A stretch of 59,732 nucleotides of DNA, filler included, from Sphacelaria rigidula (Eukaryota), in NCBI GenBank assembly GCA_964200075.2. It is 9 parts of 9 records of this genome, joined end to end, with 100 filler letters (N's around TTAATTAATTAA, not from the genome) between each part and the next. Parts side by side here need not be neighbours in the genome. Positions count along the whole stretch, not along the records: positions 39,890 to 46,437 come from CAXNAA020019422.1; 8 more parts are not named here. One strand, written 5' to 3'. This document shows, one piece after another, positions 1,244-55,069 of this stretch. The position numbers and the translations under genes were made by a program. The notes under the pieces were generated by a model, which was given only the letters and a program-made list of their open reading frames with translations, was not told the origin of the DNA and ran no database searches. How positions within the stretch are numbered: the stretch's first letter is position 1; each line of letters starts with the position of its first letter.

Positions 1244-1382
1244 GGGGGTGCATTCACGATATTGCATGCCGTAGTTAGAAGACTGTTGACCTCGCATCCT
1301 TTCAAAGCCGGGACGGGGCACGCCGGGTTTTCGCCGGGTTTACGGGGGCGGGGGGGGGGGGTACTCATGATCATGCATGCCG
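1244..1382 (-). mobile_element. 5'-truncated copies of retroposon family A embedded in G-runs
   Basis: Matches the 3' end of the full copy at 43782-44344 (gtactcatgatcatgcatgcc; caaagccgggacgg..cacgccgggttttcgccgg). Flanked by poly-G. Confidence 0.75.
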
Positions 1383-6352: not shown

Positions 6353-6461
6353 AGCGCCGGAATGTTCAGGGGGGCTCTATTAGGAGTAGGAACGGTGCTC
6401 CCTCTCGAAAGGGATGCGTGGTCAATGGTCAAACGACTAAGGCAAGCAACAAATGAGAACG
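6353..6461 (+). mobile_element. 5'-truncated LINE 3' end with ~20-bp TSD
   Basis: Closely matches the LINE end at 14060-14170. Flanked on both sides by cctccccccccc(c)atttttctt (6330-6352 and 6462-6483). Confidence 0.8.
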
Positions 6462-6549
6462 CCTCCCCCCCCCCATTTTTCTTTCTTTTTTTTTTGTCCT
6501 TTGATATATTTATTGTTTCTCAGTTTGTTGAAATCCTGGATAATTGTTC

Positions 6550-11700: not shown

Positions 11701-13197
11701 AGCCCGCGTCTACAGTAAAGATCCGATTGTACGCCGAATTGGAAGTTGGGCGAATGCGAATATTGCCATTTCATGCGACTGTCCCCCGTAGAGTAGAAAT
11801 TGGATTCAACTCGTCTAGTTGGTCGCACTTCAAGAGATAAAGCACTTCACCCGTTCAGTTCGTTGTACACTACTTTGAATTATTCCATCGAAATGACCGT
11901 GTTCCTTTTGCAATCCTTCCGCATCACCCTGCATGGGTGCACACAATGCAAGCCAGGCTTCATTCACTCGGAACCAAAACGATCATCGCCCGCTACAGGG
12001 GGGAGGCACAGCAAACAGCAGGGGGCCAGACGTAGTCAGTACTTCTGACAAAAATAAGGTCGGTTCATGTGTAGTAAAGTACGTTCCGGCGCTGGGGGGC
12101 AAGGATGTAGTACACTACTGTACGCTGCTTTCGGTATGTTAGGACGACTTGACCGAGAGCCATACACGTCGAATTTATGCGTCACTATCGACAAAAAACA
12201 CCGGTCACGCGGCTCAACTTTGGAGTTTCGTAAAGACCGCGCTGTATGCTACGCGGGGATATGAGAGAAGATCGATTCTCCTCGACAGTTGTCGATCTAA
12301 GTTGGGTCACTTCTCGAGCTAACAATTAACCCGTTCGCAGACGGCTTCACATAATTCTTCCATCATGCTCTTTGGTTAATGGGTGGGTGTTTCGTCAGGG
12401 CAACAAAAACCTGTGTACTCATGATCATGCATGCCATCGTCATAAGATGATTGACTTCGCATCCCTACAAAGCCGGGATGGAGCACGCCGAGTTTTCGCC
12501 GGGCCAGGATCGCACTCAAATCACCAAGCGCGGAGCGCCGTGGTGTACTCGGCGAGTCGCATAAGGGGTGAGCTGCATCCTGCTAAGATTGTTCGGCTCG
12601 AAGCCTACTTATTATCTTGCATTTGGATGACAGCCAACAATGGGTTGCTTTATTTTCTGGTATCGCAACTTCCAGAGACAGCCACGGGTTATACACTGCC
12701 TCATGGATGCGTCACCACAAAAAACCTGTGGGGGGAATGGTTGCAGTACAGGGACAAGAGATACGACAGACCCTGCCTGAGGTGAGACATGGAAAAGTTC
12801 TCATTTCTGGCTCCAATCCAAAAGCTCTCTGACCTGCAGTCCGTAGTACCACGCGCCGGGAACATCGTACCAGCAGTGCTCCTTGCATAGGTCGACGGTC
12901 ATCTCGTCGCTGGTAATCATGCTTGACAGCAACCTATCACCGATGTCGTCCTTGAAGCACGCGACATAGTCATCATTATATACGGGGTCGGCCCACTCCA
13001 ACTGGTACAGGCTGAAAGCCAAATACCCTCCACACGTAGCGTCAACGTGTAGGCTCCCGCCGCTCGAGAAGGCGTCCGAGTCGTTCACGCCAGCGCACGG
13101 TATGGCACACTGTGCGTCGCCGCCATGCATTTCGTGGTCTGTGTTTCCGTCAACCCCACACCAACACTCGTTGCCGTTTTGAAGGCCCATGTAGGCG
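8749..13197 (-). CDS. WSC carbohydrate-binding domain protein, 3' part (3 exons), with poly-Asp C-terminal tail
   Basis: Exons 13197-12834 (5'-truncated; GLQNGNECWCG...CGGYLAFSLY...CFKD...MTVDLCKEHC..YYGLQ), 11309-11201 (YGSECWCG..CHVLCTGDREHSC) and 8933-8749 (GGYEAFDLYKL..GG-D31-ET*). GT-AG sites and phases (0,1) join to complete two WSC repeats. Confidence 0.9.
10113..10580. mobile_element. MITE / foldback element with ~180-bp terminal inverted repeats
   Basis: 10117-10300 is the reverse complement of ~10400-10575 (gactctaatgg..aattcctgttcaaaactgc..ccgtcgttttacgcctgaaaa). Lies in a WSC intron. Confidence 0.85.
12412..12720 (-). mobile_element. 5'-truncated copy of retroposon family A
   Basis: Aligns with the 3' ~310 nt of 43782-44344. 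Confidence 0.8.
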
Positions 13198-13297: not shown

Positions 13298-14170
13298 ATA
13301 TCTGGGCGTAGAGATCTCAAGAAACTGTTATTGGGATGCACATATGAAAAAAGTAATAGAAAAGGGTAAGGCACAGATAGGCAGAATGGACCTGGTCCTC
13401 AGAGACCCGCGTCTAGAGACTATGATCAAGAAATGTATCCTACTGAACGTGATCGTACCAAAGCTAGAATATGCAGGAGAAGTATGGGAGGGGAACGCGA
13501 AGGTGGTGGAGGGGGTAGAAACAGTACAGATGGCAGCAGCTAAGAAAATACTTGGATGCTCGAAAACGACGAGTAATACAGTTTCGAGAGCAGAGTTGGG
13601 AATGTACTCACTAAAACCAAACAGAGACATGAGGAAATTGCGATGGCAGTATGCGTAAAGAACATGCAGAGAAAGAGATTGCTGGCTATAGTTGATGGGG
13701 CTGTATGGAGGAAAAGTACGAAAGGGCAGCCGGGAGCAAGGTGGGGCAAAGAAGTCCATAAAATATGAAAGGAGATAGGAGGAAACCAAGACGAAATGCT
13801 CTCTATAGATGAAGGCGCGGGGTGCAACACAAAAGTAGGAGACATGAGAGAAATGAGGGTAAAATGAGAACTTAGACGCAAGGTAGACGAGGAAGATCAC
13901 CTACAGATATACGGGGGGTTGAAATCGTATGATGCATCAGGCAGTAGGGAGAAAACGATGGTTGTACTAGGGAATAGCTGGTGGCCAGAGATGGCGAAAC
14001 AGGACGGGGATAAGATATTTAGCAGTTTTTGTGTAATGCACGGAAGAAATGCAATGGGCACCGGAATGTTGAAGGTGTCTCTATTAGGAGTAGGGACGGT
14101 GCTCCGTCTCGAAAGGGATGCATGTTCGACGATCGAACGACTAAGACAAGCAACAAATGGGTACGCACAC
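13298..14170 (+). pseudogene. Non-LTR retrotransposon (LINE) ORF2 C-terminal part, degenerate
   Basis: YLGVEI..W..H...V..K..., L..VIVPKLEY..EVW..., E.VQ..A.K.ILG.....SN...RAELG is the typical RT domain 7/thumb. It contains stops and frameshifts, and ends at a C-rich junction. Confidence 0.85.
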
Positions 14171-14180
14171 CCTCCCCCTT

Positions 14181-14447
14181 CAGCCTGGTCCGGCGAGAAC
14201 TCTGCGTGCTCCGTCCCGGCTTTGTAGGGGCGGACCCCCGATGGGATTCGCGTCGGTTGGCGATGACGCTAGAAAACACTCCACTCACTGCGTAAGCTAG
14301 GCAACCACGTCACCGATTGGTTTCGAGCGCTCGCGTTTTCGTTTGCGGTAACCATGATGGTGGGTAGTCGAGCTGGATCGCGTTGTGCGGCGTGGGAGAA
14401 GCTCAACTCCGCACAGTGGGGATGATCGTACTTTACGTTGTGTTTAG
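14181..14447 (+). mobile_element. 5' half of retroposon family A, interrupted by the Copia LTR
   Basis: Matches 43782-44035; similarity stops at the LTR terminus 14448. Confidence 0.8.
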
Positions 14448-14914: not shown

Positions 14915-17900
14915 ATTTTTGAATTTATTGATAAGCTTGACGAGATGGCGGTGCCTGTATCTGCTGAGGTACTTGGTCCCCATGTCGGCGAGTTGGTCTT
15001 CGGTCTTAGCGACCCGAATGTGGATCGTCCCCTCCTTGACTCATCCCTGAATAAAGAAGTACTATAGAGCTACGTGCTTGACTCTCACGTTGTAGGTTTC
15101 GGTTGCCTGCAATGTGGAGAGTTGAAGTGTTGTCGATATAAACAGGGACGGAGTCGAAGTGTGTGCCAATTCCCATCTCCCGCATTATGTTCGAGCAAAG
15201 TATGGGCTCCTTCATGGTGAGTGCAGCAGCAACGAGTTCTGCTTCCATGGTCGAGTACGCCGTCAATCCTTGTAGTCCTAGCTTAAAATTAATGGGGCCA
15301 TTCGAGAGAAATATGAGATATAATGATGTCGATTTTCCGTTGTCCGGATTGTTGACAGTTTGCATCTGAAAAAGCCGTCAATTGGAAACCGCCCTAGTTG
15401 GAGGGGATGTCATGATCCGTAGTGCCGGCCAAACATCGAAGTAGGTGTTTCGCAGATGCCATATGCGCCTTCGACGGTTTGGACATCGCCCGCGCCAGTT
15501 GATTCACGGCGCATCCAATGTCGCAGCGGGTTACTTAAGCGAGATACATCACACTGCTTGTAGTGGCCTGGAAGATTGATTTTCCTCCTCGTTTACTATT
15601 TTTTCCCTCGGCTGGTCCAGTGACAGTTCTTGTCCCACCCGAGGAGTGCGCGCCGGGTTGCAGTTCGCCATCCCGTCTCCAGGAGAGACTTGGTGTAATG
15701 TTTCTGGCTGATGTTAACCGCCTTGCCATTACGGTCACGAACAACCTCCATTCCCAGCACTAACGATACATCTCCCATGTCCGTCGTCGAAAAGCTTCCC
15801 ATTAGTTTCTGCTTGATTGTTTCAAGTACCTTGGAGTCTTTCCCGAGCAGTAGGACATCGTCGACGTACCAAGGCAAGATTTAGACATCACCACTCCCCT
15901 GGTGGATGTACACACAACGGTCCGACTCAGGACTCGTGAACCCAATTTCCGCCAGGTGTGTGTCGACTGAACCCCACCAACAGTTTGGACTTTGACGGAA
16001 ACTGTAAAGACGTTTTTGGAGCCACATTACCATCGGAGTTCCATTGGCGTCAAACTCCTCGTATCCGGGCGGCCTTTTGACGTACACTTCTTCCTTGAGT
16101 TCGGCGTTCAGGAAGGCGGTATTATAGTCCACTTGCCATCACTCCAACTCGTGCTCCGCCGCTACAGCCAACCCCATACGAACGTTCTGGATCCTGCAAA
16201 CCGGTGCGAAAGTACTGCCGCAGTCGACGCGGGGAACTTGTCCCCAACCCTGCACGACCACTTGGGCCTTGTACGAGATATCCTCTTACTTCTTGCACAC
16301 CCATCAAGACCCGATTCGCGTGTGTCCAGTTGGAACAGAGTCAGACGGCACGAGAGTATACACGTTGTTGTTTTTTAGGCTATCCATCTCCTTGTCTGAA
16401 GCCGCCTTCCACTGTCTTTTTCGGGGAGCTTCGTGGCCTCATTGAACGAGTTCAGGATTCCTTCGGTTTTCTCCTCCACCGAACAACTCGAGAGGCTAGT
16501 CGCTGTGCAGGCATACTCCACGGCTAGTTCCGCCCCAAACGTCTGATGTGCGACATCTGGTAGGAGTGCGTTGATGTGTGTTTGCAGTCGTCGTAGCTCG
16601 GAGAGAATTTTGTCATCCACAGTCGCTGCGAGGTGCGCAGAAGCTGCGTCGTCGTTATTCTGGTTGCGTTCCCTAGAGAGGTGCGTTGCAATGCCTGCGC
16701 GCATCACGGCAGGAGCTACTAAATGGTGAGAGTGTCGAGGGCGGTTGAGCGCGGTAGTTACTCGGCTTCACCCTGTAGAGGAGTTGCAGTTTGTTCTAGC
16801 GGCGTGCGGCTATCCGGTGATGTCGGCGACGTCTCTTCACGAGGTGTGTCATCGTCGTGCAGCATGTCCTGCTTGGTGGTAGCGCTGATTATCCCCAGAA
16901 GCTCGGCCACCTGTGGATCCTTAGAGATCCCGCTGGCAGTGACATGATTGACAGAGGCATGAGCTGGTTGAGCTAGAACGGAGGCGGAGTCGCGAAGATC
17001 ACGGAAGAAGTCATCGTCCGTGGCGTAATTGTAGCCCTCTCTGTTGCTGGACTCTCCGTCCCAAGTGAACATGGGTGTACCTGAAGTTGTGGCTCTCCCA
17101 TCGGTGTGAGGTGTGATGGCGTCTCGATGAAGACAACGTTCCTAATCTCCATGATACGTCGGGTAGCCGGGTTGTAGACTCGATAGCTCTTGCTGTCATT
17201 GCTATACCCAGCTAGTCGCCCTTCAACTGCTGTGAGAGCGAGTTTCGGAGTGTGCCGTACTATATGAACGAAAGTCCTGGCTCCAACAACTCGAAGGTGT
17301 TGGGGATCCGGTTCTGTCCTCTTCAGCATCTCATGAGGGGACTGCATGTCAAGCGCGGAATGCGGTGATCTGTTTGCAAGGTAGGCCGCTGTGGACATCA
17401 ATTTCCTCTGGAGGAAGGTTGTTAACCCGCTGTCGGCAAGCATGCACCGAATCATGGCTGTAAGCGTCCTCTCTAAGCGTTCTGACAGGCCGATTTGTTG
17501 TGGTGTATCGGTGCTCGCAAACTCTACCCATATGCCTGTGTGCCGGCAGTACGTTCTGAAGTCATTGCCAATAAACCAACCCCCTATGTCTGACCGAACA
17601 CCGCCAGGAATTACCATTGACTGTATGAAGGACTGAAATGCGTGAAATGCGCCGCCCTTGCTTTTTAGAAGATAAATCTCTGTCCATGTGGTATACTCGT
17701 TGGAGATTTTGCAGACGTACTGGAAGCTTCCGAGGGCCTCCGGCATCACCGGTCCCATCAAATCTGCCATGACCAGTTGGCACGTGGGTTGCACTTTGTT
17801 GTTGGCCGTCTTCGGATGGGCTAGTTGGTGACTTTTCCCAACAGCACAAACATCACAGTACGTGACGGTTCCACTGAAGTACACCCCGTTGCTTTCGATG

Positions 17901-19690
17901 GTTTTTAGAAGGTTCAAACTATTGCTGTTCAAGTACCGCATCCGCCGGTGTCACAGCGTGGCGGTGTCTGCAGCTTTCGTAGCCAGTCGCGCCGTTGCCG
18001 CAGATTAGTTCTAGAGAAAAAAGTATAGGTCACTCTCCAGCTCTTGGAGCGGAACGGTGAAGTTGTTTGTTTCCAGTCTTGGGTTGTTCATCTCGAAAAT
18101 AGATGCCACTCACTCCATTTCGTGTCGCTTGTTTGACGGAGAACAGATTCCGCCCCACGCCAGGCACGACCAAACACGAAATCCGGACCAGGCGGTGGAC
18201 CCATTCATCGTCTTTGATGTGTCCGCAGAGCAGTCCCTTACCAACCCCTGGCAGTCGGTGCCCACCTGCGGTGGTGATCTTACGTGGGATCACCAGTTCA
18301 TGGTAGTTGTAGAGTTTGCGTTGCAGCCCCGGGATAAGGGTATCGTCAAAGTAATGTCCCGACGCGCCACTGGCTACCATGACACTGGCAGAGCTAGCAG
18401 AGCGGTTGCTGCCCTTCTTCCAATTATCGAGAGCGGGTTCCACCGCGAGAGCCGACCCATCATCAGCGCCAGTGATACTGCCAAATGTTTCAGCGTTGTC
18501 GTCGAGGTTCGGCGTAGCTCGGTGGTAAAATGAGTTCCCACCTATCAACCAGGCGTAATGAACCACGGTTATTATGACCAACGCGCAGACTATTGGGGAA
18601 AGGGCCTCCTTGGTTCCCCGCAATATGTTGTAAGCTCTGCTCCGGAACTCCAGACCCCCGGCCTCTTCGGACCCGTCGGTCCCTTCGAAGGCACGGAAGA
18701 GTCCGCTGCTGTCAAATGAAGCAACGGGTTTCTTCGTCGGAGAAACGGCCAAATGTTGTCCGCTTCCCGGGGATTTTGTGTTCTGGGCGCTTCTAAAGCA
18801 TTGAAAGAGATGACCGCAGTCTACTCCCTTGCACCGGTGGCTGGTGGGTAACCTGACCACTACACGAGATTTGCTGCCTGCTGGTCGCGCCGTTGCAAGC
18901 AACGGCACTTTTCGTCGCTGTAGGTTGTTGACATGTGGAAGGAGCGCCACTTGCCTTCTGTCCCCTTTTCCTTGTTTCCCCCAGTCAGTGCTTGGGTCGC
19001 GGTTCGAGCAGGGCAATTTCTTTCAACATGGCCTCGATTTCCGCAGCGCGAGCATGCTATGCCGTTTCTTCTGCTATCACCACTTCCACTGGCCCACATG
19101 TCGACCCCGCGGCCTGCGACCAAGTTGATGGCATCTGGGCGTGAGACATACTCGGTATAGATGGTGCTGACCATGTATCGGAGATGCGCCAACTTAAAAT
19201 CGCGCCTCTGGCAGCTAGTATTACGAACTCTTTCGTACTCGGCAGGCAGGGCACGGAGGATAATGTCCTCGTATTGCTCGTCGGGTATAGATTGCCCCAG
19301 AGTCATCCTACGATAGGGGGGGGGGGGGGGGAGTTTGGGGCCTTTTTTNNNNNNNNNNTTGTGGATCAATAACGCTCATCCATACTCCCTTACACCGTTT
19401 GGAAACAAATACAAGCGCAACGCAAGTGTTGAAGGATGTCTGACACACTTATCAGCCTCTTTTTTCGTGCAACCAAATACCCCCCGCCCTATCGTAGGAT
19501 GACCGCCCATTTCCTCTAGGCGGTCGCGGTAGCCGCCTATAACAAGCATGAAGTCTTCCGGGTAATCTCCGGACTGCATCATCGTGGTGTGAAGTTTGTC
19601 ATGAAACTCCCTCCGTGCTTCTCTGATGTTGCCGTCATATTTGTTGTGCAGCGCTGCCCACGCTGCTTGTTCGTTCCCCACACCATCCTA
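14915..19690 (-). mobile_element. Ty1/Copia LTR retrotransposon gag-pol, pseudogenised
   Basis: Domain order is gag (AW..L..KY; CSRCGNRGHVERNC knuckle), protease (ASGASGH, degenerate DSGA), integrase (HRR..L, CDVCAVGK, DLMGP, RSD.GG.F, ERL.RTL), RT (D...AFLNA.L.EEVY, YVDD) and RNase H (STMEAE, IDNTS, QLAD..TK). Many stops and frameshifts; no 5' LTR was identified in the contig. Confidence 0.95.
19302..19503. mobile_element. Small MITE inserted in Copia gag
   Basis: TIR gtcatcctacgataggg / ccctatcgtaggatgac. Removing it restores the gag reading RLEEMG|QSIPDEQYEDIIL. Confidence 0.75.
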
Positions 19691-21339
19691 TTAGGTTCCC
19701 CCCATATGACGTCTGACTGTATTCTTTGCGGGTTTTTCCGTGCTGAAAACCAGGATACTAAACAGGTCATGGTTGAACAGGCATTTTTTTTTTTTTTTTT
19801 TTTTTTTTTTTCTTTTTTTGGTTTTCGCTTTCATTATCTTCTCCANNNNNNNNNNNNNNNNNNNNNNNNNNNNNNNNNNNNNNNNNNNNTTAATTAATTA
19901 ANNNNNNNNNNNNNNNNNNNNNNNNNNNNNNNNNNNNNNNNNNNNGACGCCAACCCCATCGGGGGTCCGCCCCTACAAAGCCGGGACGGAGCACGCCGGG
20001 TTCTCGCCGGACCAGGCTAGGGGGGGATCATTGGACGCGCACTGAACACCGTCACTCTGCACCGATGATGGAAGAAACGCAACGGCAATGACCACACCGG
20101 CGAAGTATTGTTGGATATTGTTGAACTTATCGCTGCCAGCTACGTGTTTCGAGCTCTCGAAGAAGCCGTGAGAGATTGATTGGTTATCTCACTTGACGAG
20201 CTGATTGCAACAATTCAGCCCATGATGAGGAGCAGTAATAACAGAACAGAAAAGAAAGAAGGGAAGGAACAAAAAAAATCAGAAGTAATAGCCACAGAAA
20301 GGAAAGAAGAAAGGAAGAAGCCACCACAACAACAACAGCAGCAGCAGCAGCAGCAGATTGGTCGCCCGGCAACGCTTCGCGCGCGCAACTTCAACTCAAA
20401 TGCAGCACTACTGTAAGCAGCACGCAGTAAGTACACTGCACGAATTACAGTACTTGTGTCATCCCTGCCATAGTCGGCCTCCGCAAGCCGAAAGACCCTG
20501 CGGTATATAGCAAAATCCTCACCGACGCGGATTGTTCTCATCTCCTGAAACACCGGGCGGTGAACTACGCCGAAGCCCTTTTTTTGTGCCCCTAGCTGAG
20601 TAGGAGCTAGGGTTACAACTACCGTACATACGCTGGGACTCTTTGTGCGAGTGCGGAGACAGCGTAGGCACAACCTGTGGCTACTTTGTCCCCCAGGAAA
20701 AATTCAAAACCAAGCTTTGACGTTCGAACCGTTCCAACCCTCAAGACGTATGAGACAACCGTTGCTGACCCCAGCATTTGATGACGAAGCCGGAAGAAGG
20801 CATGCGGTAGCCCCAACGGCGTTCATAGCCGCCAGGATCTCAGATACTTTGAGCAAGGCGAGCTTTGATTAAATGGTGGTTGCGATTGGGGTAGCTTCTG
20901 GGGTTCGACCGCCGGTACACGTTTCCTATCCTTCAGTGTTTTTCTCCCAACCTCAAACTGTCTGTCTGTTCAAACTACACACAGTGTTTGTACAGCACTC
21001 GTCATCGACCCTGCCCTGTGCTGTTCTCATGGGGTAAAGAGCTACCATGATACTGGCCAGCGAAGGACAATGAAGCAACACGCTGACTGCGTGCGAGCAC
21101 CAGCGACAGCAGTGGTGATGGCAGCCAAGCCACCCATGGCTGCTGTCGTGGGCTGGAGGGTGTGTTGGCGTGCGGCGGGATTTCAAACCCGTTTTCTGAT
21201 CACATAAGAAGTGGGTTATCTGAAAACGCGTATTTGAATAGAGTTTTCTTCATACATGAGAACTAGCTGACGGGTCACCGTCAGCGTCACGTACACGGGA
21301 ACACCACGCGTCAAACAACGCGTCACAACGCCTTCAACA

Positions 21340-23984: not shown

Positions 23985-24612
23985 GGTACTCGTGATCTGG
24001 CATGCCATACAAAGTCGCATGAAAATCGACCTCGCATTCCTACAAAGCCAGGACGGAGCACGCGGGTTTTTTGCCGGACCAGGTTCGCTCTCGATCACCA
24101 AGCGTGAAGCGCCGTGATAGGTCCGGCGAGTCGCATGAAGGGTGAGCTGCATTCTGCTAAGATTGTTCGGTCCAAAGCGTACTGATTATCTTGCACATGG
24201 ACGACAGCCTACAATGAGTTACTTCATTGTCTGGTATCGCCACATCTAGAGAGAGCTACGGCTTACACACTGCCTCATGGATGTCTCACCGTCTATACAC
24301 TACGTAGTACGATCATCCCCTCTGCGCGGAGTTAAGGTTCTCCACCCTGCATAAATATGATTTAGCTCGACCACCATCATCGTTACCGCAACAAAAACGC
24401 GAGCGGCAACCCCCTAGTAGAACCTGCTTGGCTAGTTTAAGCAGCGAGTGGCGTATTTTACAGCATCGTTGCCAACTGACGTCAATCCCCAAGGGGGTGA
24501 AATACGCAGGGAGGGTGCACTCATGATCTTGCATGCCATAGTCATCATGACCATTGACTTCGCATTCCCACCAAGCCTGGACGGAGCACGCCGGCTTTCC
24601 GCGGGACCAGGA
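23985..24612 (-). mobile_element. Two tandem copies of retroposon family A (near-full 23985-24495; truncated 24512-24612)
   Basis: Both align with 43782-44344 and both abut G-runs. Confidence 0.8.
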
Positions 24613-26772
24613 ACACGGGGGGGGGGAGGTGATAAGGCTAGCATCATTTCTAGTCCCTAGCCGGGGTTCAAGAGCGACAGCTTCGATTCTGCTTTCTGAA
24701 TATGTATGTGTGCATCTTCGTGCACAATAATGGTGTCTGCTTTGCCTCGTCAGGTAGATTCAAGCACTCCACGTTTGGACCCAACTATCGTTTTTTCTTT
24801 CCCTTTTTCGTTTCCAGGGGACGATAAACACCAAGATACGCCCGTGGAATAAAGCGCAGTCAACGGTTGGAAGGCAGAGCGGTCGCAGGGGGTGGCTGAT
24901 GCGCAAAACATACGTGTGCTCCGAAAGCACTACGCACGCCACCCACGCACGTGGCGGGTTGCGCTGTAGTAGGCACGGGTAGGGATGCTCCGACGTTTGA
25001 AGCGAAGGCCGGTGTTCCTGTATATACCCCTGCTTGAGCCGTTCCACGCTAGGGGCATGTATGTGAGTGGAAAAATGTAATCGAAAAAAAAAAAAAACAT
25101 GAGGGTCATGATGTTGTATGTAATATAAAGTGATACCACTACCCTCCACCAATTAAAGGGGCGCGAAAAGTCGTCAAACTAGCAACCGAGGTGTCGCTGA
25201 ATATTAGCATCAAAACTATCTGCAATAAATTGAGGGTCCCAGAAAAGTGCGGTGGGTCGCCTGCCCAGCATAGAACCGCACTATGCTGCGACCCCGCACT
25301 GTACTCGAATAGTGCTATCGCTCGAATTTAGTATAGCGGATCGGACTTTTTCGACAATTGATTCTGACCGTATTTTGGTAGAATGGGATCCCGAGTGTAC
25401 TTACTCTTCATCAGGGACAGAGATAGGTCTGCTACGGCTGGATCGGCGCTACGCGCCGATCCGTCAGGAAGTCGTTCAGCGGCTGCCGGAGGCAACAACG
25501 GGCCTTCCGCAGAACGAAAATGTGGAGGGTAAATCGTCATTTTGCGCCATCTTCCCATCATTTCTGACGCGTTACCGGTGTTCACGAGACAAAATTAAGC
25601 TGTAAGATATCCGTTCAGTATATATTCTGACGGTTAGGACGTGCGTTCGAATCTCGGTAAAGTCACGCGATCTAGGATTTTTGTCTGACATCACGTCCAA
25701 AAGCGGAGAGCGACCATGTCGTGGATACACAAAGTTCGACCTCTCGCTCGACGAGGGAAAACGAACCGCTGAACCCTTCACGCGTTAAAAAAAAATGAAG
25801 CACCGCAGGAGGAAGACTGGTTACTAAACCAAACAAAAAATGAGAAAACCCCATGTTGGCCTTCCTCCTGTGTGACCTTAATTGATACCCACATATTCCG
25901 AAAGGTGTAGACTGCCACCTAGAGTAGATGGCATGACAGCACCCTCATATATCTATATATATACAAGGGGTTCGGCGGCTTACGTCGCCACGATCAATGA
26001 GATCGACAGCCAAGGTACATAAAAACCGGTCATCGTTGCTCGCATTGCGTAAACGGCACAGGCCATTCAAGTACAAAATGGATGTAAAACGCACACACTG
26101 CATTTCACAACGGCACTCAACTCGATGCTCATCAAGTACGATTACGGTAGCCGAAAGTGAAGTGACTCCTGGAGAGTCGACAGCAGGGAGCATGGGTCCT
26201 TCCCGGTGTTGAAAGTCGGATATATTTCACGACGGCCGAATCCGCTGGTCGACATGTATGACACCAGGCAGCAACCCAGCAACCGCGCCGAATCAGCGGC
26301 CACGAGTCTCAAACCGTAAGGCAGCCCCTAAAACTGAGGTAGACGGCAATCCGCCGATCGCCGAGACGTTTTTCGTCGCAACGTACCGAAAGCACTTGTT
26401 GTAAAGTAGCGATACCAGAAAATGAAGCAACTCCTGGGAGCAGTCATCCAAATGCAAGATAACCAGTAGGCCTCGGGCCGAACAATCTTAGCANNNNNNN
26501 NNNNNNNNNNNNNNNNNNNNNNNNNNNNNNNNNNNNNTTAATTAATTAANNNNNNNNNNNNNNNNNNNNNNNNNNNNNNNNNNNNNNNNNNNNCAATCCA
26601 ACCGTCAGAGGGTTTCGAGGTTACCAACTGAGCCACCGGGGCGACCGGAAAGTCAAAAGAGGAAACTGTACATGGAATATTTTCGGAGAAAAGAGGTGTG
26701 GACGCATTCTCCCAGGTGCAACAACCCCAGGTGCGAAAACCGTCCGCTACTGACAAAAACAATAGTGCTCAC

Positions 26773-29700
26773 CAGCTCAGAAACCTCGAGCTGTGTCATT
26801 GAATCCCACACGCCGTCGGAGGCCACGACCAGGTAGGAAGGTTCCTGTACACAAACAACGACAACAACCAAAACAACAACCAAAGAGGACAAAACAGAAG
26901 AAATATACAAGTCACAAGAAAGCAAAACCAGGCTCCTGACTGCAGCGCGGCAAGCACAGCTTTGTAAAAAGGTCCGCTTACACCCACAACATCGTCATCA
27001 ACAACAACAATCACAGTAGCAGACAAAAACGAAAGGACCAGACTTATGATCAACTAGCGGAATGAAGCCAATATAGCACCGCATCAACGGTCCTCTTGAA
27101 AATAGTTGTAAAAACTATGGAACATCAGCGGCGACGACCACCCTGCCAACACGAGCCTGATCTTCCGACCTGCGACATTGAAGCACGCGTATTTTCTCAC
27201 TTCCGCGAATGCGGGGGTTTCCAGAGCAGGGAGAGTGGCGGGGGAGAGTCACAGGTATGGTGCAAGACCACCTTGCGGGGGTGTACTCATGATCATGTAT
27301 GCCTTAGTCATGGGACCATTTATTGAACTACAGCAGCGGACGCGCTCGCTGATCAGTTTGTAAAAAAAAACAAAAAACAAATCCTGAGGAAGGACGGTTA
27401 AGGCCAGATCTTGGGCAAGGGCACAAAAGAGGAAAACAACAGGCCATTTGTCAAAACAGTATGTGATACATTTACGCATACCTGTCCTCGACTGTAGGGC
27501 AGACTTCGGACCGACACGTACGGCTCAGCAATAACGCATCCGGGCCAAGTCTTCTTGAGATCCAGGTCCTGCCACGGAAACAGCAGTGTCAACAACGCGC
27601 GGTGCAACATATCTTGGGTAGGAAGCAAGCCAAGTTAAATACGCTGGTGACTACTATAGGCGCAGTCGCCCGCAGCACGTGCTTTCCCACCCTTTCTGTT
27701 TTTTATGCTGTTCTATGCAATGCTTCCTCTCCGTGTGTGGCTTCCCCAAGTCGATGGCGACCGGTAGCGGTACAGCAACACTGGACACGCCCAACAGCAG
27801 TTGAGCATATACTTGACATCATTTGTGTAGAAAAATGGACATGACCAGAGATACAAAATGATTGATTTTGTACTCGTCCAAAGATCGAAATCGCAACACA
27901 AAAACGACTTGTCGCGTCATGTAGGCACGGCATGGGCAGAATGAAACGAAATGGGAACAATACTTGAAGCGCCTATGCTGGAAAATGACCCTTGAAGCAC
28001 CTATGCTGAAAAATGACCCGTCTGTCCCGACGTGATTTTCACAACACTCAAAGTATTACTTGTAGGTTGACTCATCCTGCACGCGATCAAGCATCAACTC
28101 GCAGAGGGAAACATGCAATGTAAGGCAGATACCCGCCTGGCCCCTATTTAGCTGGGCATGGTGTGCATTGCTTCATGGGAAACCGTCTGGTGTTGAGGGA
28201 GGTGTTTTTGACCGTTCGATCGTATTTTCAGCACACCCGTGCACGAAGAGCCGTTGTCCTCCTTTGCTTCGGCACTAAAAAGTCTCGAACAAAGCTCAGG
28301 GCACTGGTACGCTCAAGACCTACACCGCGGGGGATTGCTAGACCTGTAGCTGTCACAGTCAGCGAAGGCGTGGCCTGCTCACGTGTTATTTTCGTCCAAA
28401 CAAACCAGTATCAAGAGCTAAATCCCAATTTTGCGGTTTGTTCAGCCAGGCAACTCGATACGAGATGGGCACCTTGTAATGCATCGAGTTGGCCATTCTT
28501 CTCGGCCCCACAAACCCACAAACAGTGGAATATGCTTAATTTTGTCCCCATAAACAGGTGTTTGAAGGACAGAAAATGGCCGTTCTGTACCGCCGATTCC
28601 GTTCCCTTAACATGTGTCTCTTGTCTCTTTTCTCCGTGGGGATGCGTTCCCTCTCACCCCAATAGCTCTGGAGGGTTCCAGCACACCCATGACGCGTCCC
28701 TGGATCACCCTCCCGCCTGCGTGGCTTATCCTAGTCTTTTCATCAAGGTCCATCGCGCGGTGCGCTGATCGAGCAATAAAAAAGCGTTCACCATCGAAGG
28801 TTCCGCCATGCACACACGGAAAGAGAGGCCGTGAAACAGGACATGTGTGACGAACGAAAAAGTAAAACCAAGATCAGGATGCATCGTCACCAACCCTGGA
28901 GTGAGTGCATGCACCACTCCACCGTGCCAGGCCAAAAAAAAGCACGATGCCAAAAAAAGAGCGCGACAGGCGATGACCGCGGGACACGGGAAATAATTTC
29001 GTACGTGCTGCGGTATACTAAGGAATCAAGAATTTCCGATTTTCTGGACGACTGGATTACAGCAAAGTGTCCTTGAAAAGGGGGGCGTGTCGCAGAACCA
29101 TCAGAATGTTTCACAGAAAAAACATTCGAAAAAGTTCAGTACACGACGTTTTGGCATTCTACACACATCTTATCAGTTTCTCGCACAAGCTCGGCAGTGA
29201 TTTGTCCAGTCCCTCCCTCACGAAGCTGCGATTTGAACCATGGTTCGCTTCGCTACTATTGCACCTACAGTATCCCTACACTGTAAGGGAAAAGGGAGGA
29301 GGAGGGATTGAGAAACCACACCGTTTGTGTTCACTGGATGAGATAAGGTGCACCCCTCGACGGATGCTCCGCACACACTATCCAGAACTAAATCAGTTTC
29401 GTGGAGTCTCCCCAAGGTTCTCCGGTCTCCAAAAAAGTAAAATTAAATAGGCAAGAAAAAGAACGAGAGGGGGGGGGGGGGGGCTTGTTTTACCGTACTG
29501 TCCATCTACCCCGTGTGTACGTGTGCCTTGAAATTCCCGCCCTTCAACAGATGCAGGTCGGCATACACAAATACATTCTCTGTCACACCGAATAGACCAC
29601 CCTTCCACTTTACGCAGCGCATTCCCGTTTCCTTAATCGCAGGATATGGTCAACGAAAAAACGATCTTGTTCATATTACCTAAATCATTACTGGTTTCTG

Positions 29701-31788: not shown

Positions 31789-33647
31789 CTGCTCTTCGAC
31801 CGTCACAAGAGTTTTTCGACCGAGTGATACAGATTTCCGAAATATTCGTAGCAGGGGGTGAGTGGTGGACGCAGAGAGATACGGAGCCTGAGCATGAGCT
31901 TTTGAACAGGTTTCACGGATGAGTTGTGGTGTACTCAGAAACTCACCATTCAATATTTCTGGAAAAACGAATAACAAAATCACAGCAGCGATACCATCTC
32001 GAAAAAGCGGGCGGGCGGGGATGGGTGGGTGTAAACATGATGTTGCGTGCAATAGTCATATGAACATGGACCTTGCATCCCTGCAAAGCCGGAACGGAGC
32101 ACGCCGGGTTTTTGCCGGACCAGGCTCGCAGTCAATCACCAAGCGAGAAGCACCGTGGTGTGCTGGGCGTGTGGTATGAAGGGGGGAGGGGGACTTCTCG
32201 CACAAGCTCCACGATGACTTCATCAACCTCATCCTTCAAAAGAGTGTGACCTGAACCGGGTATCATTTCACTTCTTTCTCACCTACTCCTTACACTGTAG
32301 GGAGAGTGGGGGAAGAGACTACAAGGGGTATACTTGTGCCGGTGTTGACACGCTTGGTGCGATGTTTACGCGCCGTGAGTTTTTGTGGAGGATGTCCAAC
32401 ATGTCCAACTTCAGAGACGAGATGCCTACATACACTGGAACACATGGACACGACTTTCATATACGAGGTGCGGTTCATACAAAAGTTGACAACTTCCCAT
32501 TCCAGTATTGCTGGACACTAAAGCATTGATTTGAAAAGTGCCGTTGTGGCGGGCGGGGGGGAGAGTCATGCTTGCAGCTTGGACTGTTGGCCAGTGAGAA
32601 CGCGCCCTCAAAGATTTGGAACACATAAACACACCCACAAGCCAGTGACTGAGAATGACGAAACCAACACGGCCGCGGGTACGCTCAACACCAAACCTAG
32701 CGCATATCAAATCTATTCGAAAAAGGGGGGCAGCTGTTCTGACACACCAGATGGGCCGGATTATCGCAGCACGCCGGTACGGAAACCGCCGCAAAAACGG
32801 CACCATATCCCCTGTAAAGCTGCCAGCATATACATATACTTAGCACGCTTTGGATGTCGCACTCGCCTCCGTCTTTCCTGCTCTCTCTAAACGTTTGTGC
32901 CATCCATCAACGTGTATTTGTCTCTCTCCGTGTCTGTTTGTCTGTCTCTCCCTCTACCTCTGTCTCCGCCCGTCTTTGTCCTCCCCACCACTTTTCACTC
33001 TCATGGCCCGCTGCACCCGTTGCGGACCCCTGCTTTTCAGGACTAACCCATTTGGGTGCACAAAACTCCACGGTTAGGACAAATAATGATTCGTCAGGAA
33101 ATTACTTGGTTTTAGTATCATAAGTTGACTCGTGATGAATGNNNNNNNNNNNNNNNNNNNNNNNNNNNNNNNNNNNNNNNNNNNNTTAATTAATTAANNN
33201 NNNNNNNNNNNNNNNNNNNNNNNNNNNNNNNNNNNNNNNNNCCAATGTACCGCGCAGATATCGGAACGGCTTTTAATGTGAAGACAACAACAAACAACAA
33301 ACAACAACAACAACATCTATATATATATATATATCTGATGCTGGCAAAGAGCATACGCATTCGTAAGATGGGACCGAGGGAGATCGGGGCGTTCATGAAG
33401 GTGACCAAGCAAAGTTATCGTTTGTCCTTCTCCATCGCACAACGATGCGCAACGCCATGCGTGGCAACACCTCCCCCCCTCTGTTTATTCTCCCCCACGA
33501 GCGGAGGCGAAACAATGTTTTTGGCGTGCAGATTCATGTTACACGGTTCTACCCGTCTTGGGCTATAAACGGTCGACAGAGGGCACGGTCCACCTGTTCG
33601 TGACTTCCTTGGCTTCCGTGACTGCTCTTCTATCTTGTTCCGGGCAG

Positions 33648-39305: not shown

Positions 39306-40119
39306 CTGTCGATCTCTATCGTGTAACTGGGAGAGCCACCGTCGCTACGTTTCATGCGATAAACGTTCACTTACGTTGTGTCAGCACCAACTGTAGGCTT
39401 ATGTCTCCCAGTCGACGCGTGCAAGACCGGTCGCCCCGCTGGCTCAGCTGGTTACCTCGAAATTTCTCGACGCTTGGGTCGTGGGCTCAAATCTCGGTGC
39501 GGTCATACGATCTGTTTTTTTTCTCGCATAATTCCCAACAGTGGATAGCGACTATGCCGTGGGTACACAAAGTTCGACTTCACGGTCGAAGAGGGAAAGA
39601 GACTGCTGAACCCCTCTCACAATAAATTATGAGGCAAGCACCGCAGAAAGGAAGGTGGAGAACTTGGAAAAATAAAAGAAGAAAAACACTCCTGTGTTGG
39701 CCTCCCTCCTGTGTGACCTATAGCCTCTGCCAGACGATCTGGACAAGAGAGCTATTCAGTGATGGACTTCTCCAGAATCCACTGGCCTCNNNNNNNNNNN
39801 NNNNNNNNNNNNNNNNNNNNNNNNNNNNNNNNNTTAATTAATTAANNNNNNNNNNNNNNNNNNNNNNNNNNNNNNNNNNNNNNNNNNNNTGGACAATCTT
39901 TGAGAAACAAAGAAATTACGGATTCTGCATACTTCTGACGCTGACTACTTCATATACAAGTTTTCAGGTCAGAATTGAACCAATTTTGGCCACTTCGAAT
40001 CGGGTTTTAGCCAAGTTCAACCGAAATCTGCCAATTTCGTGCTGGACAAACGTGATGACGTGACAAAAGCGATTGAGGAAGAGACGTCATTAGCCGCCGT
40101 AGAAGCAGAAAGGAGTCAA

Positions 40120-40443
40120 GCCGCGATAGCCCCCCCCCCAGAAATAACATCATTGTAGGGATGCGAGGTCAATGGTCTTATGGTCTCATGACTGTGGCAT
40201 GCATGATCATGAGTACACCCCAGAAATAAGGCTGGTTTGAGGAGTCAAAGTTCGCATGTAAACCAAAATGACAGAAACCGAGTACACCAACCAGCTGGGA
40301 ACTACCATGCTTGAGGTCGTTTTCGCCAATGTCACCCAAATGAGGGACTTCATGCAGCCTGAAATCAGCTATCATGCGCTGCATGGCCAGTTTTTCGTGT
40401 CAGTTTTGGGGCTCGTTTGGGGGGGGGAGGGCGCAATCGCGGC
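40120..40443. mobile_element. MITE family B carrying a truncated family-A insertion (40148-40217, TSD ccccagaaataa)
   Basis: TIR gccgcgatagccccc / gggcgcaatcgcggc. The interior is the reverse complement of 44360-44550. Confidence 0.7.
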
Positions 40444-41937: not shown

Positions 41938-44900
41938 CTGATTGCCACCCTGGCTGTCGATGAACATCTCTCGCAACCCCCGCACGCCGACAGCTTTGGC
42001 CACCTCATCTCCGACATCCGGGTGGACCAGGCGAAGGTTCACTTGTCGTAGTCTGGACGTGAGCCAGGGAGCATCGTCGTACACTAGGTCCGTTGCAGGA
42101 AGCAAAAGCGGTCCGTTTTTCTCTGGGACGAGGATAATCTCGGAGTCAATTCTCGCTCGCTCGGCTGGGCTCAGCTTCGACAGGACCCGTACCATTCCTG
42201 GCGTCCGGTGTTCGTTCGGCGGGGCGAGGGAAGGGGAGGGGATCCATGAAGTGCAAACTGGGAGAGTAAAACGCTTGACAAGCGACGTTGCAGAGAAAAA
42301 ATAAATAACTGAGAGTTGAAGAGTGATGAAAAAAACTCGAGGTCACATCGAGCGAGCAAACTACAGTGTACTCATCCTTGCCACCTCCTCCCCATCCCCG
42401 ATATCTCTTAGCCGTGCACAAATTAGTCACCTCAAGCATGGTGCTACCACCTACTGTGAACACAACTGTTTCTGCGCGACGAGATGGGATATAAACTCAT
42501 GAAAAAAGGGAACATCCAACCTGTCGTGTGTGATCCAGGCACGGGTGTGGGTATCCGTACATGTATGAGAGAGACTGCAGACGCTGATCAGCGGGCCCTG
42601 ATTCAAGTGCAATCCAACATGACGCAAAACCTAGTGACCACGGTGGGCCTTGCAGAGCAGCTCATTTCAACAGCGGCATGCTTTCAGCTCACCCACAGCC
42701 ATTTCGAGACCATATCCGTCCAGCGGCCTGCCCTGACTCTTGGCCTGAAGCTTACGCAGCACGGCGATGAAGTCGTGCGGACTGAATTTTTCGGGCACGC
42801 CCAGGGCTTTGAGCAACTCCACGTAGCTGCGGAGGTCGGGCGGCACCTATTCCACGCAAAGGGGCGAAAAGGGGGACAAAGCGATAACCCATCTCTACAT
42901 ATAATGAAGGTCGGGATGTTTTCGAAACAGAAGCAGGGTCAAATACGAGCGTTCAACATACGAGGCCCTCGAAATGACAACGGTTAGAAAGGATAGGACC
43001 CAAAGGTGCAATGAGTATCATGGAGAGTAGGGTGGGGAGGGTAGCGTCGTGACTCAAAAAAGGGGCTTTGCAACTTGGGACAGAAAGCCGTACGACCGGA
43101 ACGTGGGAGGGTTTCTGCATGCGAAGAGCGCGGAATCTACATGAAACGAAAGCAGGGAAGAGAGGGACAGCAACATCTGTCTGCGTATTGAAAAATAAAT
43201 GCTGGTGGGAAATATTTGATAAAACTAGAAAAGAAGGCGGGGAAAGCGAAAAAAACACGAAAGAAGGCCTCTACTACTACTGCAACAACAAAGCGGATGG
43301 CAGAATTGTTTTTGATCTGTCAGCACACTATTCACTACTTGACATACTACAAACACCACAATTGTAGCATGGTAAAGCAACACACACATCGCTGACACGA
43401 TTGTAAACCTCACCCACCGCCGGAAACATGGTTCCACCGGAAACAACATCATGCTCATCACTGAAAACCGACCAACCAGGTCACATTCAACTGGGTAACT
43501 CACCGCCCGTAGGAACAAATCCGAGCCCGCTGGCGCTTCAAAAGCAATCCGATCGCTTGACAAGAACTTATCGCCCACCCAGATCCACTCCTTGCCGTGT
43601 AGTTGAGCTTTCACCTGAGACCCCGAAAAAACGGTGACAACGAGCAGCATTACTCATCGACCACACCAACAACATCAACAGTGATACCTCGCCCGCCCAA
43701 AAAATCAGGGAGTAACGGAAAAAATCACCACCGAGTAATGCCGTGATAGCTGCCCCCTCCCACCCCCCCCCAAAACCAGCCCTAAGCCTGGTCCGGCGAA
43801 AACCCGGCGTGCTCCGTCCCGGCTTCGCAGGGACAGACCACCTATGGGGTTGGCGTTGGTTGGCAACGACGCTGTGAACACGCCACCCACTGCGTAAGCT
43901 AGGCAACCAGCTTACCATTTTTTCTTGCGCGCTTGCGTTTCTTTTGCCGTAACAATGATGGTCGAATCACATCATATTGTGCGGGGTGGGAAGACCTCAA
44001 TCCCGCGCAAATGGGATGGTCATACTACTTGGTGTTGAAATGGTGAAACATCCATGAGGCAGTGTTGAACCCGCAGCTGTCTCTGGCGGTGGAAATGTCA
44101 GAAAATGAAGCAACTCATCGGAGGCTGTCATCCAAATGCAAGATGTTCAAAAATCCTTCGGGCCGAACAATCTTAGCAGGGTGCAACTCACCCTACATGC
44201 GACTCGCCGAACACACCACAGCGCTTCGCGCCTGGTGATTAATTGCGGGCCTGATTCGGCGAAAACCCGGTGTGGTCCGTCCCGTCTTGGTAGAGATGCG
44301 AGATCAATGGTCATACGACTACGGCATGCAAGATCATGAGTACACCCCCAAAACCAGCCTCAAAATTCTCGGGAAGAAAATATCCATACAGCCAACGCAT
44401 GATAGCTGGTTGCAGACTGCACGAAGCGCTGCATATGGGTGGCATCGGCGAAAACGATATGAAGCGTGGGAGTTCCCAGCTGCTCGGTGTACTCAGTTTT
44501 TGTCATTCTGATTCGCATGTACATTTTGCCTCCTCAAAACAGCCAGTTTTGTGAGGGAGGAGGCCACCGCGGCATCGCTGCACCCGCGGTGGACATGTAT
44601 ACTTGAATGTACATGATTTTTCAGCTGTTCCATCGTGCGTTCAGCGACAAAATGCATGATGTGCGGCGGTGGAAAGTGCTGCATGTCGCCGACTGGGCAG
44701 GCCCCAGCAGCAGCGCGTGTGCGGGAAACGTGGTGAAGGCTCATGTAGGGGGCAGGCGCCCTACTCCACGCAACCCGTGTTGGCCGGCTATTTCTAATAC
44801 CGAGTACTCCGACGGACCTGAAGTACCGCTGGTCGAAAAAACTAAAAAATTCGGGTGACCTCGAGTATACACACCCCGAACCGCTAGTATCATATTACAC

Positions 44901-47479: not shown

Positions 47480-49410
47480 GTCGCGATGAATCTATCCCAC
47501 AACGCTTTGCGGGATCTGACGGCTCTTCTTGTGGAGTTGAAATCGGACAGCGGAATCCTTGACCGACATTTCTTGCTGCTCAAGGAACATGTCATCAAGG
47601 GTCACCTTGTTGGTGCCTCAAGCTTAGAGGGGATGCGCATGTCGTTGCCTAGGGACGAGATCCGAAGCACGGTCGGTTCCAGCTGAATGAACGGTTCAAC
47701 TCCGATCAGGTGCCCTTGCCTTTCGTGAACAGCCAGTCGGAAACGTGGGCAACCAAGGGAGACAAGCGCATCGCAATCGCGCAGCCGTTCAGTGGGCTGG
47801 AAAAGAGGCAGTGCACGATCCAACCTACTATTGGGTCGGGTGGGAAGCTTATGCGATGCGCAACTATTTTTCGAGGGACCGGGAAGCGGATCTCGAAGGT
47901 GGAAAAGAAGGCGTATGACCCTCTCGTTGACGTTTTTTTCCAGGAAAATGCGTGGGCGGACAGCGAGCTCTGCATGGCGTGGGCGAAGAAGTGCTTCCGC
48001 GAAAGCCTTATGCAAGGGCAAGATGGGGTGCCCTCGGAGGAATCGCTACTGACTCTCGAAACCTTGTTGGGACAGACAACGGACGAGTTGAAGGCATATA
48101 TGAAGAAGGAGTGCAACTCGCTGGTGTGGTTTTACGCCGGAGGGGTGCGCGGATGCACTGCAGCCCATCGATACAGACCTTGGTGCACTCAAGCACGAGG
48201 TTGGGAAGCAACTCGACTTATGGCTTGAGGACGGGGACAATCTGGAACGGTGGGAGTGTCTCGCTGACTGCATCTGATCGACGCGTCCTGCTGACCGGGT
48301 GGGTCGCAGAAGCTGTTGGACACCGTCGATAACCGGCCCGGCTACAGATTCCGCCTGTTCGAGAAAACAGGGGCCCTGATGACGACGGACGGAACTGGTG
48401 ACGATCGAACCAAAGCGGAGGAATTGACAGAGCCTTTGGCGTTGATGTACGATGGGAGCGACGACGAGGTGGACGAGGTCGGGAAGGGCAGCGGGGGAAG
48501 GGAAAGTGGGCAAGGAGAATATGGGAAAAGTGACCAAGACATTCAAGGGGAGGTGGGAGAAGCTGGTGATGGGGGTAGAGAAGAAACGGGTGGAGCAGGG
48601 CACGTGGAGAAAAAGCAAGGAGAAGGGGACAAGGGCCAGAGTAGCGGGGACGAGGACAACGAGGACGAGGACAGCTGGGAACAAGGTAGCGGAAAACGGG
48701 ATCTTGTTTGTATTGTTTCTTCAAGTCTCGTTTGCTTCAGCGCTTGTGGGTGGTTTTCTGTGTCGATCAGTAGATACAGCACTACTGCAAGTGTTTCGTT
48801 TCGTACAGACCTGACACGAAGTCTCGTGGCTTACAGTATGACTTACAGCATACCCCTCTGGTCGTGAATATCCCAAAATTTTGGCCCTTGTACCACGAGG
48901 AATGTGTCCCCGTTTCATATTCGTTTGCGCCAACGCTCTACCTGGTACGGTATTCAGGTGTCCCTGATAACGGGAAAGATCCGCCGACTCTGCTGGACGA
49001 TGAAGACGATATGTCACCGGACGATGCGCCTATCGGGATGGTGGTCCCGGACGGGTTTCGCCTTCAACAGTCGAGACCACCTGCCCTAGATAGTCTCTTA
49101 GTGAAGCGTGGGGTATTATCAAGATTTAGCATGGAGTGGTTTGGTGGCCGGATCACTCGCAAGAGTCAGGAGCGCACCAAAGAATAATACGACTATCGTG
49201 TGAATCTTGAAGGTCAGAGCGTGCGTTGTATGAAGCTACCGTTAGCTGCATACAGCACAGAAGCAAGCGTGCCGGTGGGTTCGCGGGTCTTACTGGAGCC
49301 TACTAACAAGCAGCAGAGGTGGGGTGCGGTCGGAAGGGGCGGGCAGAACAGCCAGCGCGGTGATCCAAAAACAGGCCGAAAAAAACGGTAGTCATAAGCA
49401 GGGGAAAGTA
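47480..49410 (+). pseudogene. pogo/Tigger-like DDE transposase pseudogene with spliced C-terminal extension
   Basis: Motifs DQVPLPF, KRQCT, IFRG.G, FQENAWAD, LLTLETL (second D degenerate), LQPID and LTASDRRVLLT.W, with frameshifts. An acidic linker is followed by putative intron 48686-48957 and then a W..G.I...Y.YRV domain. Confidence 0.82.
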
Positions 49411-53651: not shown

Positions 53652-55069
53652 CAAGGGTAGGTCTAGTAGAGTATGTACTTTTGAGTACTCGAGTATTTTA
53701 CTCGAGTATTTACTCTACTCGACGTTTGAGTAGGTCGAGTACGGCCTCAAGTACTCTACGAGTTGTGAAATTTTGAGTAGATCGTGTACGGCTTCAAATA
53801 CTCTATTCAATTTTTGAGTAAGCACTCTCAGTAATACTTGAGTAGAGATTATCACTTGAGTATGACCTCAATACTCTACTCAATTTTTGAGTAGGTCGAG
53901 TACGGCCTCAAATACTATAAACACGGGATGTTACAAATTGGGGATATATCTTTTATTGAGGATGAGAAACCCGGAGAATTAAACTCTTCGTATCCACACC
54001 AAATCTTCGAAATATCGGTCCATTTCTCCACCTACTGCTAGCTATTGACAACTGCTTTACGCCATAGAAATTTGGATTCCGATCACCGAAATGTTGGGGT
54101 CCCGGGTGAAAAACCAATTTCGGAACCATTATGGTGTCCGTTCGGACACCCCGAATTTCCCAAAAATGTTTTTCACCTAGGATCCCAACATTTCGGTGAT
54201 CGAAATCCAAATTTCTATGGCGTGTAGCAGTTGTCAATAGCTATCAGTAGATGAAGAGATGGAACCATATTTCGAAGATTTGGTGTGGATAGGAAGAATT
54301 TACTTCTCCGGGTTTCTCATTCCCAATTTGTAAGATCCCGTGTTTCTACTCAAATTTTGAGTAGGTCGAGTACGACCTCAAATACTCTACTCAATTTTTG
54401 AGTGAGCACTCTCAGTGATACTTGAGTATAGAGTATCGCTTGAGTACCTCAATACTCTACTCAAATGATCACACGGCCTCCAATACTGTACTCAATTTTT
54501 GAGTAGGCTTAGTGTGTGTGTTTGTGTGTGTTGTCGTCCCATCTGTTCTGGTCGCCGGTCGACACCTTTCGGTATATGTGGGCGCACCAGCCGGGGTCAC
54601 ACAGGGGGAAGGCCAATACATAAGTTTTTTTCTTCCTTGTTTTTAGGACTCCACCTCCTTTCTGCGGTACTTGCCTTTACTTTTTATCGCGAGAGGGGTT
54701 CGGCAGTCCCTTCCCTTGTCGACCTTTAAGTCGAATTTTGTGTACCCACGACATAGTCGCTCTCCACTGTTGGGCAATACGGCCTCACATACTCTACTCA
54801 ATTTTTGAGTACCTTGAGTACGGCCTCAAATACTCTGCTCAAATATCGAGTGAGCACTCTCAGTAGTACACGAGTATGGAGTATCACTCAAGTATGACCT
54901 CAATACTCTATTCGAATTACGAGTAGACTGAGTATGATCTCAAACACTCTACTCGAATAGTTGAGTAGGTTGAGTACGGCCTCCAATACTCTACTCAAAC
55001 TTCGAGTACTAAAAGCATGACTCTTGAAAAATCCAGAGTATTTAGTATACTCTACTCGACCTACCCTTG
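53652..55069. mobile_element. hAT-type non-autonomous element with TACTC/GAGTA arrays and nested insertions
   Basis: TIR caagggtaggtc.agtagagta / tactctactcgacctacccttg, with a perfect 8-bp TSD caaagttt (53644-53651, 55070-55077). Contains palindrome P (53919-54345) and a family-1 SINE (54512-54776). Confidence 0.88.

Follow-up and report, generated by a model that had tools for sequence, protein, structure and literature searches.

Positions 43785 to 44349 of a 59,732-nt stretch of Sphacelaria rigidula DNA (the window: nine pieces of ~6.55 kb each, joined by N spacers) hold a complete copy of a short repeat that we refer to as family A. The locus raises two questions: what kind of element this ~565-bp non-coding repeat is, and which machinery copied it.

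Copies of family A and their borders

We searched the whole window by BLAST with positions 43767-44359 as the query and obtained 22 alignments, three of which were the query itself or its internal duplication. The search resolved 12 family A fragments, located at 10 sites on six of the nine pieces (Table 1), in good agreement with a preliminary description of this DNA, which had claimed about 10 copies of a ~565-bp element on six contigs. Nine of the 12 retain the common 3' end. At the 5' end the 12 fragments vary: one full-length start is common to three of them (43785, about 14182 and about 20022), and the remaining nine start at query positions 71, 275, 333, 425, 484, 491, 524, 537 and 556. 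Two of the 12 fragments are cut by piece borders, and a single one (14182-14444) is missing its 3' part. The impression that most copies retain the same end, in a pattern of 5' truncation, is thus borne out by the BLAST inventory. Searches with a 19-nt pattern from the element gave 0 loci in viral contigs and 28 loci in a metagenome scan, of which 16 aligned over no more than the 19-38 nt surrounding the pattern and the other 12 did not align at E <= 0.001; a scan of genome contigs with a DNA pattern gave 26 loci, none aligning at E <= 1e-6.

Table 1. Coordinates of family A, its parts and the LINE copies within the window
Feature	Position	Strand	Remarks
Family A reference copy, full length, ~565 bp	43785..44349	+	Contig pieces of four runs break exactly at both borders; start common to copies at 14182 and 20022
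Left target-site duplication, 15 bp	43767..43781	+	Perfect direct repeat with 44345-44359
Right target-site duplication, 15 bp	44345..44359	+	Perfect direct repeat with 43767-43781
Head module, 48 nt	43786..43833	+	Repeats the first part of the element's 3' module; 83% identical to 44249-44296
3' module, 100 nt	44249..44349	+	Six full copies within the window
Stretch common to family A and LINE 3' end	44280..44343	+	50/64 identical to 6399-6460, z 19.7
Two family A tail fragments	1244..1382	-	1355-1382 and 1244-1336; C runs between them and on both sides
Family A, 5'-truncated	12413..12717	-	12-13-bp duplication: 12403-12414 and 12717-12729
Family A 5' part	14182..14444	+	Starts 17 nt past the LINE end (14165)
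Family A head	19947..20022	-	Copy cut by piece border
3' module and 5'-truncated family A copy	23986..24611	-	100-nt module (24513-24611), 14 nt, then copy (23986-24498)
Family A internal fragment	26416..26493	+	Copy cut by piece border
Family A tail fragment, 47 nt	27277..27323	-	
Family A, 5'-truncated, 157 nt	32027..32183	-	
Family A, 5'-truncated, 70 nt	40148..40217	+	Perfect 12-bp duplication: 40136-40147 and 40218-40229
LINE fragment, 5'-truncated, 109 nt	6353..6461	+	Last 31 ORF2 codons, TGA at 6454-6456, 5-nt 3' UTR
Decayed LINE 3' part	13298..14165	+	ORF2 residues ~954-1328, frameshifted and internally gapped; truncated by piece start; tblastn with P0006 and P0009; Ectocarpus homologues

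The reference copy shows the anatomy of the unit. Three extra bases (43782-43784) lie between the left duplication and the start of the element, and the last C's of the element overlap the right duplication. The longest ATG-initiated ORF wholly within the element encodes 67 aa. Its head is a partial duplicate of its own tail, so that a 48-nt direct repeat stands near both ends, and the heads at 14186 and 20017 likewise align to family A tails.

We aligned the contigs of four public runs (X1, X3, X4 and X6) to positions 43400-44700 at 80% likeness. The stretch attracted 54,728, 32,641, 42,965 and 3,223 contig pieces in the four runs, respectively, and its unique flanks were represented by single contigs. 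The borders of the element are sharp, and past 44349 the consensus continues as a C run in all four runs (903 pieces in X1). A joint at which the alignment passes from 44349 back to 43785, a step of 565, occurs in 54, 47, 38 and 2 contigs of X1, X3, X4 and X6; some family A copies therefore stand head to tail in tandem. Such direct joints are a minority: in X1, 54 contigs carry them, versus 903 pieces that run into other sequence behind 44349. The summed word depth along the element is very uneven and does not represent a copy number, and the evidence for a 3' bias accordingly comes from the 12 fragments of the window. Contigs of X6, which is only guessed to be an RNA run, include parts of the element, an observation that says nothing on independent transcription.

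Target-site duplications around family A differ in length (12, 12-13 and 15 bp), and that around the shorter LINE fragment measures 22-23 bp. Three of these four clear duplications begin with a run of C's, and the fourth begins with ACA, the last three bases of the element. Among the nine family A fragments that have both ends, a clear duplication is seen in only three; in the other six none was clear by eye, because the surroundings are C-rich and of low complexity. The element had been described as tail-less, a label that does not strictly hold: C-rich runs lie behind the family A end, either as a C-rich tail or as a C-rich target.

Short duplications of fixed length, or inverted termini, had been named beforehand as signs that would speak for a DNA transposon. 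We found the duplications to be variable, and no terminal inverted repeats at the ends of family A. A DNA transposon (or MITE) or a satellite might explain the head-to-tail joints and the 48-nt direct repeat near both ends, but the copies are dispersed, they are truncated from the 5' side only and tandem joints are few among them, so that we find such an origin hardly credible.

The tail shared with a LINE

The last ~70 nt of family A had been claimed to align with two LINE ends, at 6396-6461 and 14099-14165. For the first, this is clearly so. Against 6354-6462, the reference tail gave a local score of 54, compared with a mean of 14.0 (sd 2.0, maximum 24) for 300 shuffled sequences, and 50 of 64 aligned positions (78%) were identical to the LINE end at 6399-6460. 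All six full family A tails beat their shuffles against this copy (z 4.3-19.7). The LINE copy at 14058-14166, which is more decayed, gave a weak signal (z 0.9-5.7).

In the LINE, the shared segment is coding sequence. The 31 codons at 6361-6453 match, with 87% identity, the C-terminus of P0009, a protein of 1360 aa with endonuclease and reverse transcriptase domains, and the stop codon is followed almost at once by the end of the element at 6461, which upholds the earlier view that this segment closes ORF2 and leaves hardly any 3' UTR. The C-termini of P0009 and of a second full-length relative, P0006 (1328 aa), are the peptide encoded by the shared tail. Both proteins combine an endonuclease (PF03372/PF14529) with a reverse transcriptase (PF00078). 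The partner LINE has one ORF, which encodes an endonuclease of the APE type together with a reverse transcriptase. In work on Ectocarpus it goes by the name RTE-X; we take the clade name from PMC12477816. In a sequence search of the PDB with the partner LINE, human L1 ORF2p was the best match (E 1e-25), followed by R2 (1e-18).

The best named relatives of the window's LINE protein fragment come from Ectocarpus sp. CCAP 1310/34, among 48 proteins at E <= 0.001. Pfam reported no family at E <= 1 for the two LINE ORF fragments of the window, and a scan of genome contigs with P0006 gave 13 pattern matches, 0 of them confirmed. Another relative of the LINE protein, P0044, is listed in a public record as a hypothetical protein from the metagenome-assembled genome of a bacterium (Parasphingorhabdus sp.) and is probably algal DNA that was binned with a bacterium.

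Like family A, the LINE has C-rich sequence behind both of its ends in the window, and the fragment at 6353-6461 is flanked by a C-rich duplication (6330-6352 and 6462-6483). An alternative is that the copies are simply 5'-truncated members of a LINE subfamily whose 3' UTR is long, in which case the 565 bp would not be a separate element. Truncated LINEs, too, show 5' truncation with a constant 3' end. However, the 15-bp duplication brackets the 565-bp unit exactly, and contig pieces either end at 43785 or pass from 44349 directly back to it. Moreover, only 5 nt separate the ORF2 stop from the LINE end, leaving no 3' UTR that could hold a 565-bp body. We therefore regard this explanation as very improbable. 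Because family A combines 5' truncation and a constant 3' end with variable duplications, no terminal inverted repeats and no long ORF, the evidence supports its being a non-autonomous retroposon whose 3' end is common to a LINE.

The head and body of family A

Stringent SINE/LINE pairs and RTE-derived SINEs (Bov-tA with BovB or UnaSINE1 with UnaL2, for example) are characterized by a LINE-copied 3' end, the absence of poly-A and 5' truncation. Bov-tA and UnaSINE1 have tRNA-derived Pol III heads; unlike them, family A yielded no such head. ARAGORN found no tRNA in the whole window, and Rfam reported no family at the gathering score and nothing relevant inside the element at E <= 10, in line with the earlier statement that it has no recognisable tRNA, 5S or 7SL head. 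Nor did Rfam match a hammerhead or HDV-like ribozyme, which we considered given the tandem copies and fixed 5' end. Searching with consensus motifs for the A-box and B-box, we found neither on the element's strand between 43785 and 44349, and their counts in the window were at chance level.

These negative results weigh on the idea that family A is a true SINE, transcribed from an internal Pol III promoter, whose head derives from a small RNA not yet recognised. Its size and abundance are typical of SINEs, and a discrete 5' end is common to three copies of the window and recurs as a sharp border in thousands of contig pieces. Set against this, ARAGORN, Rfam and the box motifs all came back empty, and we judge a Pol III SINE to be improbable. 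Measured against a strict definition of SINEs, family A has the LINE-shared 3' end, the target-site duplications and the short, non-coding body, but neither a Pol III promoter nor a head from tRNA, 7SL or 5S RNA was found.

A LINE can also give rise to short partners by internal deletion, as in the RIME/ingi and NARTc/L1Tc pairs. By analogy, family A could be such a derivative, with the 5' end of the LINE joined to its 3' end and mobilised in trans by the LINE protein, rather than a SINE with a foreign head. The failure to find a small-RNA head is what would be expected of such a derivative. However, full ORF2 proteins match no family A copy by tblastn at E <= 0.01, from which we conclude that the body is not recognisable coding sequence, and the window's only LINE DNA available for comparison (868 nt of the 3' end, the 5' end lying outside the window) matches family A in the tail alone. 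We consider this origin possible but doubtful.

A search for covarying stem-loops in the shared tail had been proposed. RNAalifold predicted 22 pairs across the six tails, with compensatory changes in 0 of them, and the fold stability of the whole element was no better than that of shuffled sequences (z -0.92). A recognition hairpin thus has no structural support. We also tried a hairpin that we had seen by eye in the head and the tail, and rejected it, as it is not consistently kept across copies.

A probable counterpart in Ectocarpus and a proposed model for copying

An element of this kind and its partnership with a LINE are already described, for Ectocarpus (PMC12477816, Genome Biol 2025). 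According to the passages on this family, RTEX-N1_Ec32 is the most abundant Ectocarpus repeat, with >6000 copies (N1a 3812, N1b 2304) that total 2.48 Mb; it is ~600 bp long (607 and 604 bp), has a head of unknown origin and is sometimes found in tandem (PMC12477816). Over the 60 bp at its 3' end it shares 83% identity with RTEX-1_Ec32/RTEX-2_Ec32, and its target-site duplications are C-rich; RTEX-1 and RTEX-2 are LINEs of 5.5-5.9 kb that carry one EN-RT ORF and terminate in (C)n (PMC12477816).

Compared through this published description rather than by alignment, family A matches RTEX-N1_Ec32 feature by feature, and each feature emerged here independently. Both are non-autonomous, non-coding elements of about 600 bp (here 565 bp, with no ORF above 67 aa), although the copy studied here is shorter than the 604-607-bp consensus. 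Both share their 3' end with a LINE (78% identity here, 50 of 64 positions, versus the published 83%), and the C-rich duplications and (C)n end of the Ectocarpus element correspond to the C runs with which three of our four duplications begin. Both occur in tandem, as judged here by the joint from 44349 to 43785 in all four runs. The partner LINE likewise resembles RTEX-1/RTEX-2 as described, in the endonuclease and reverse transcriptase of P0006 and P0009 and in the C-rich sequence behind both LINE ends of the window. We conclude that family A is very probably a retroposon that codes for no protein and depends for its copying on the EN-RT protein of a partner LINE, and that it is the counterpart of RTEX-N1_Ec32.

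Because the Ectocarpus element was published in 2025, the window offers confirmation and two small anatomical details, not a discovery. These two additions are absent from the published passages on the family: the head repeats the opening of the 3' module, and the tail that family A shares with the LINE is protein-coding there, forming the close of ORF2 and stopping 5 nt short of the LINE's end. The element illustrates how a LINE can be parasitised even when its 3' UTR is all but missing, by way of the final part of its ORF. As the abundance given in those passages indicates, the RTEX-N1 family is the largest single repeat family in the genome of the model brown alga.

The preliminary description had also suggested an unclassified Ectocarpus repeat such as 'Sower'. 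The Ectocarpus part of this suggestion probably holds, by the description of RTEX-N1_Ec32; the name can be approached through rank and total length only. A 2011 review ranks Sower, an unclassified repeat of the first Ectocarpus genome annotation, as the most abundant one, at about 2.5 Mb, which makes up 1.2% of the genome (PMC3145265). The equal rank and size (about 2.5 versus 2.48 Mb) suggest that Sower is RTEX-N1; the name 'Sower' does not appear in the main text or supplementary file 1 of PMC12477816. The same study describes RTEX-N2_Ec32 (188 bp), whose 3' 100 bp are 87% identical to RTEX-N1 and which has a shorter, different head (PMC12477816). The 100-nt 3' module that stands alone at 24513-24611 is reminiscent of RTEX-N2_Ec32, and we identified no clear full RTEX-N2 copy within the window.

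How might the LINE protein copy family A? The anatomy of the copies is what target-primed reverse transcription by the partner's protein would leave. The element's RNA would end in ~65 nt that, in the LINE, are the last 20-odd ORF2 codons and the 5-nt 3' UTR, and the LINE protein may recognise this shared end, as in 'stringent' LINE/SINE pairs. By the geometry of target-primed reverse transcription, the protein would then nick the target, and reverse transcription would be primed where the nicked strand pairs with the ...ACA(C)n end of the RNA. Priming of this sort fits the duplications, given that three of the four start with a C run and the fourth with ACA. Copying in this way would also leave target-site duplications that are C-rich and uneven in length, many 5'-truncated copies and no poly-A. 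By analogy with template jumping in R2, the reverse transcriptase may further switch templates, leaving the first at its 5' end and resuming at the 3' end of a second, and so produce head-to-tail arrays and the LINE-then-A junction. Template jumping would account for the tandem joints, for the LINE-A junction at 14165/14182 and for the junction between module and family A copy at 24513/24498.

A bolder version of this model would place the recognition signal of the reverse transcriptase within the last ~20 codons of its own ORF2, a segment that would hence be doubly constrained, and would make the 48-nt head a landing site for jumps of the enzyme, giving rise to head-to-tail arrays and LINE-A chimeras. 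Family A would then be a self-concatenating parasite and not a passive SINE. We offer this version as speculation and think it unlikely to be correct as it stands.

Several other repeats lie in the window. One, at 44393-44544 (+) and 40230-40381 (-), is 80% identical between its two copies and directly adjoins a family A copy both times, once per orientation; contig depth is high over 44368-44587. A second short interspersed family is found at 2231-2620 (+), 39427-39716 (+), 25667-25946 (+), 54532-54776 (-), 26599-26648 (-) and 6655-6709 (+). Two motifs spaced 45 nt apart at its 5' end, one A-box-like with a single mismatch (2244-2254) and the other B-box-like without any (2289-2299), make this second family a candidate Pol III SINE on sequence grounds. 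Neither ARAGORN nor Rfam (E <= 1) called it a tRNA, and the word 'tRNA' is absent from supplementary file 1, on Ectocarpus transposable elements, of PMC12477816. Remnants of Ty1/copia type occupy 16973-19375 (-), with a retroviral polymerase SH3-like domain and weak Pol beta-barrel and zinc-knuckle matches. Finally, an ORF at 47653-48228 (+) has a weak match to the DDE_1 transposase family (E 7.9e-05).
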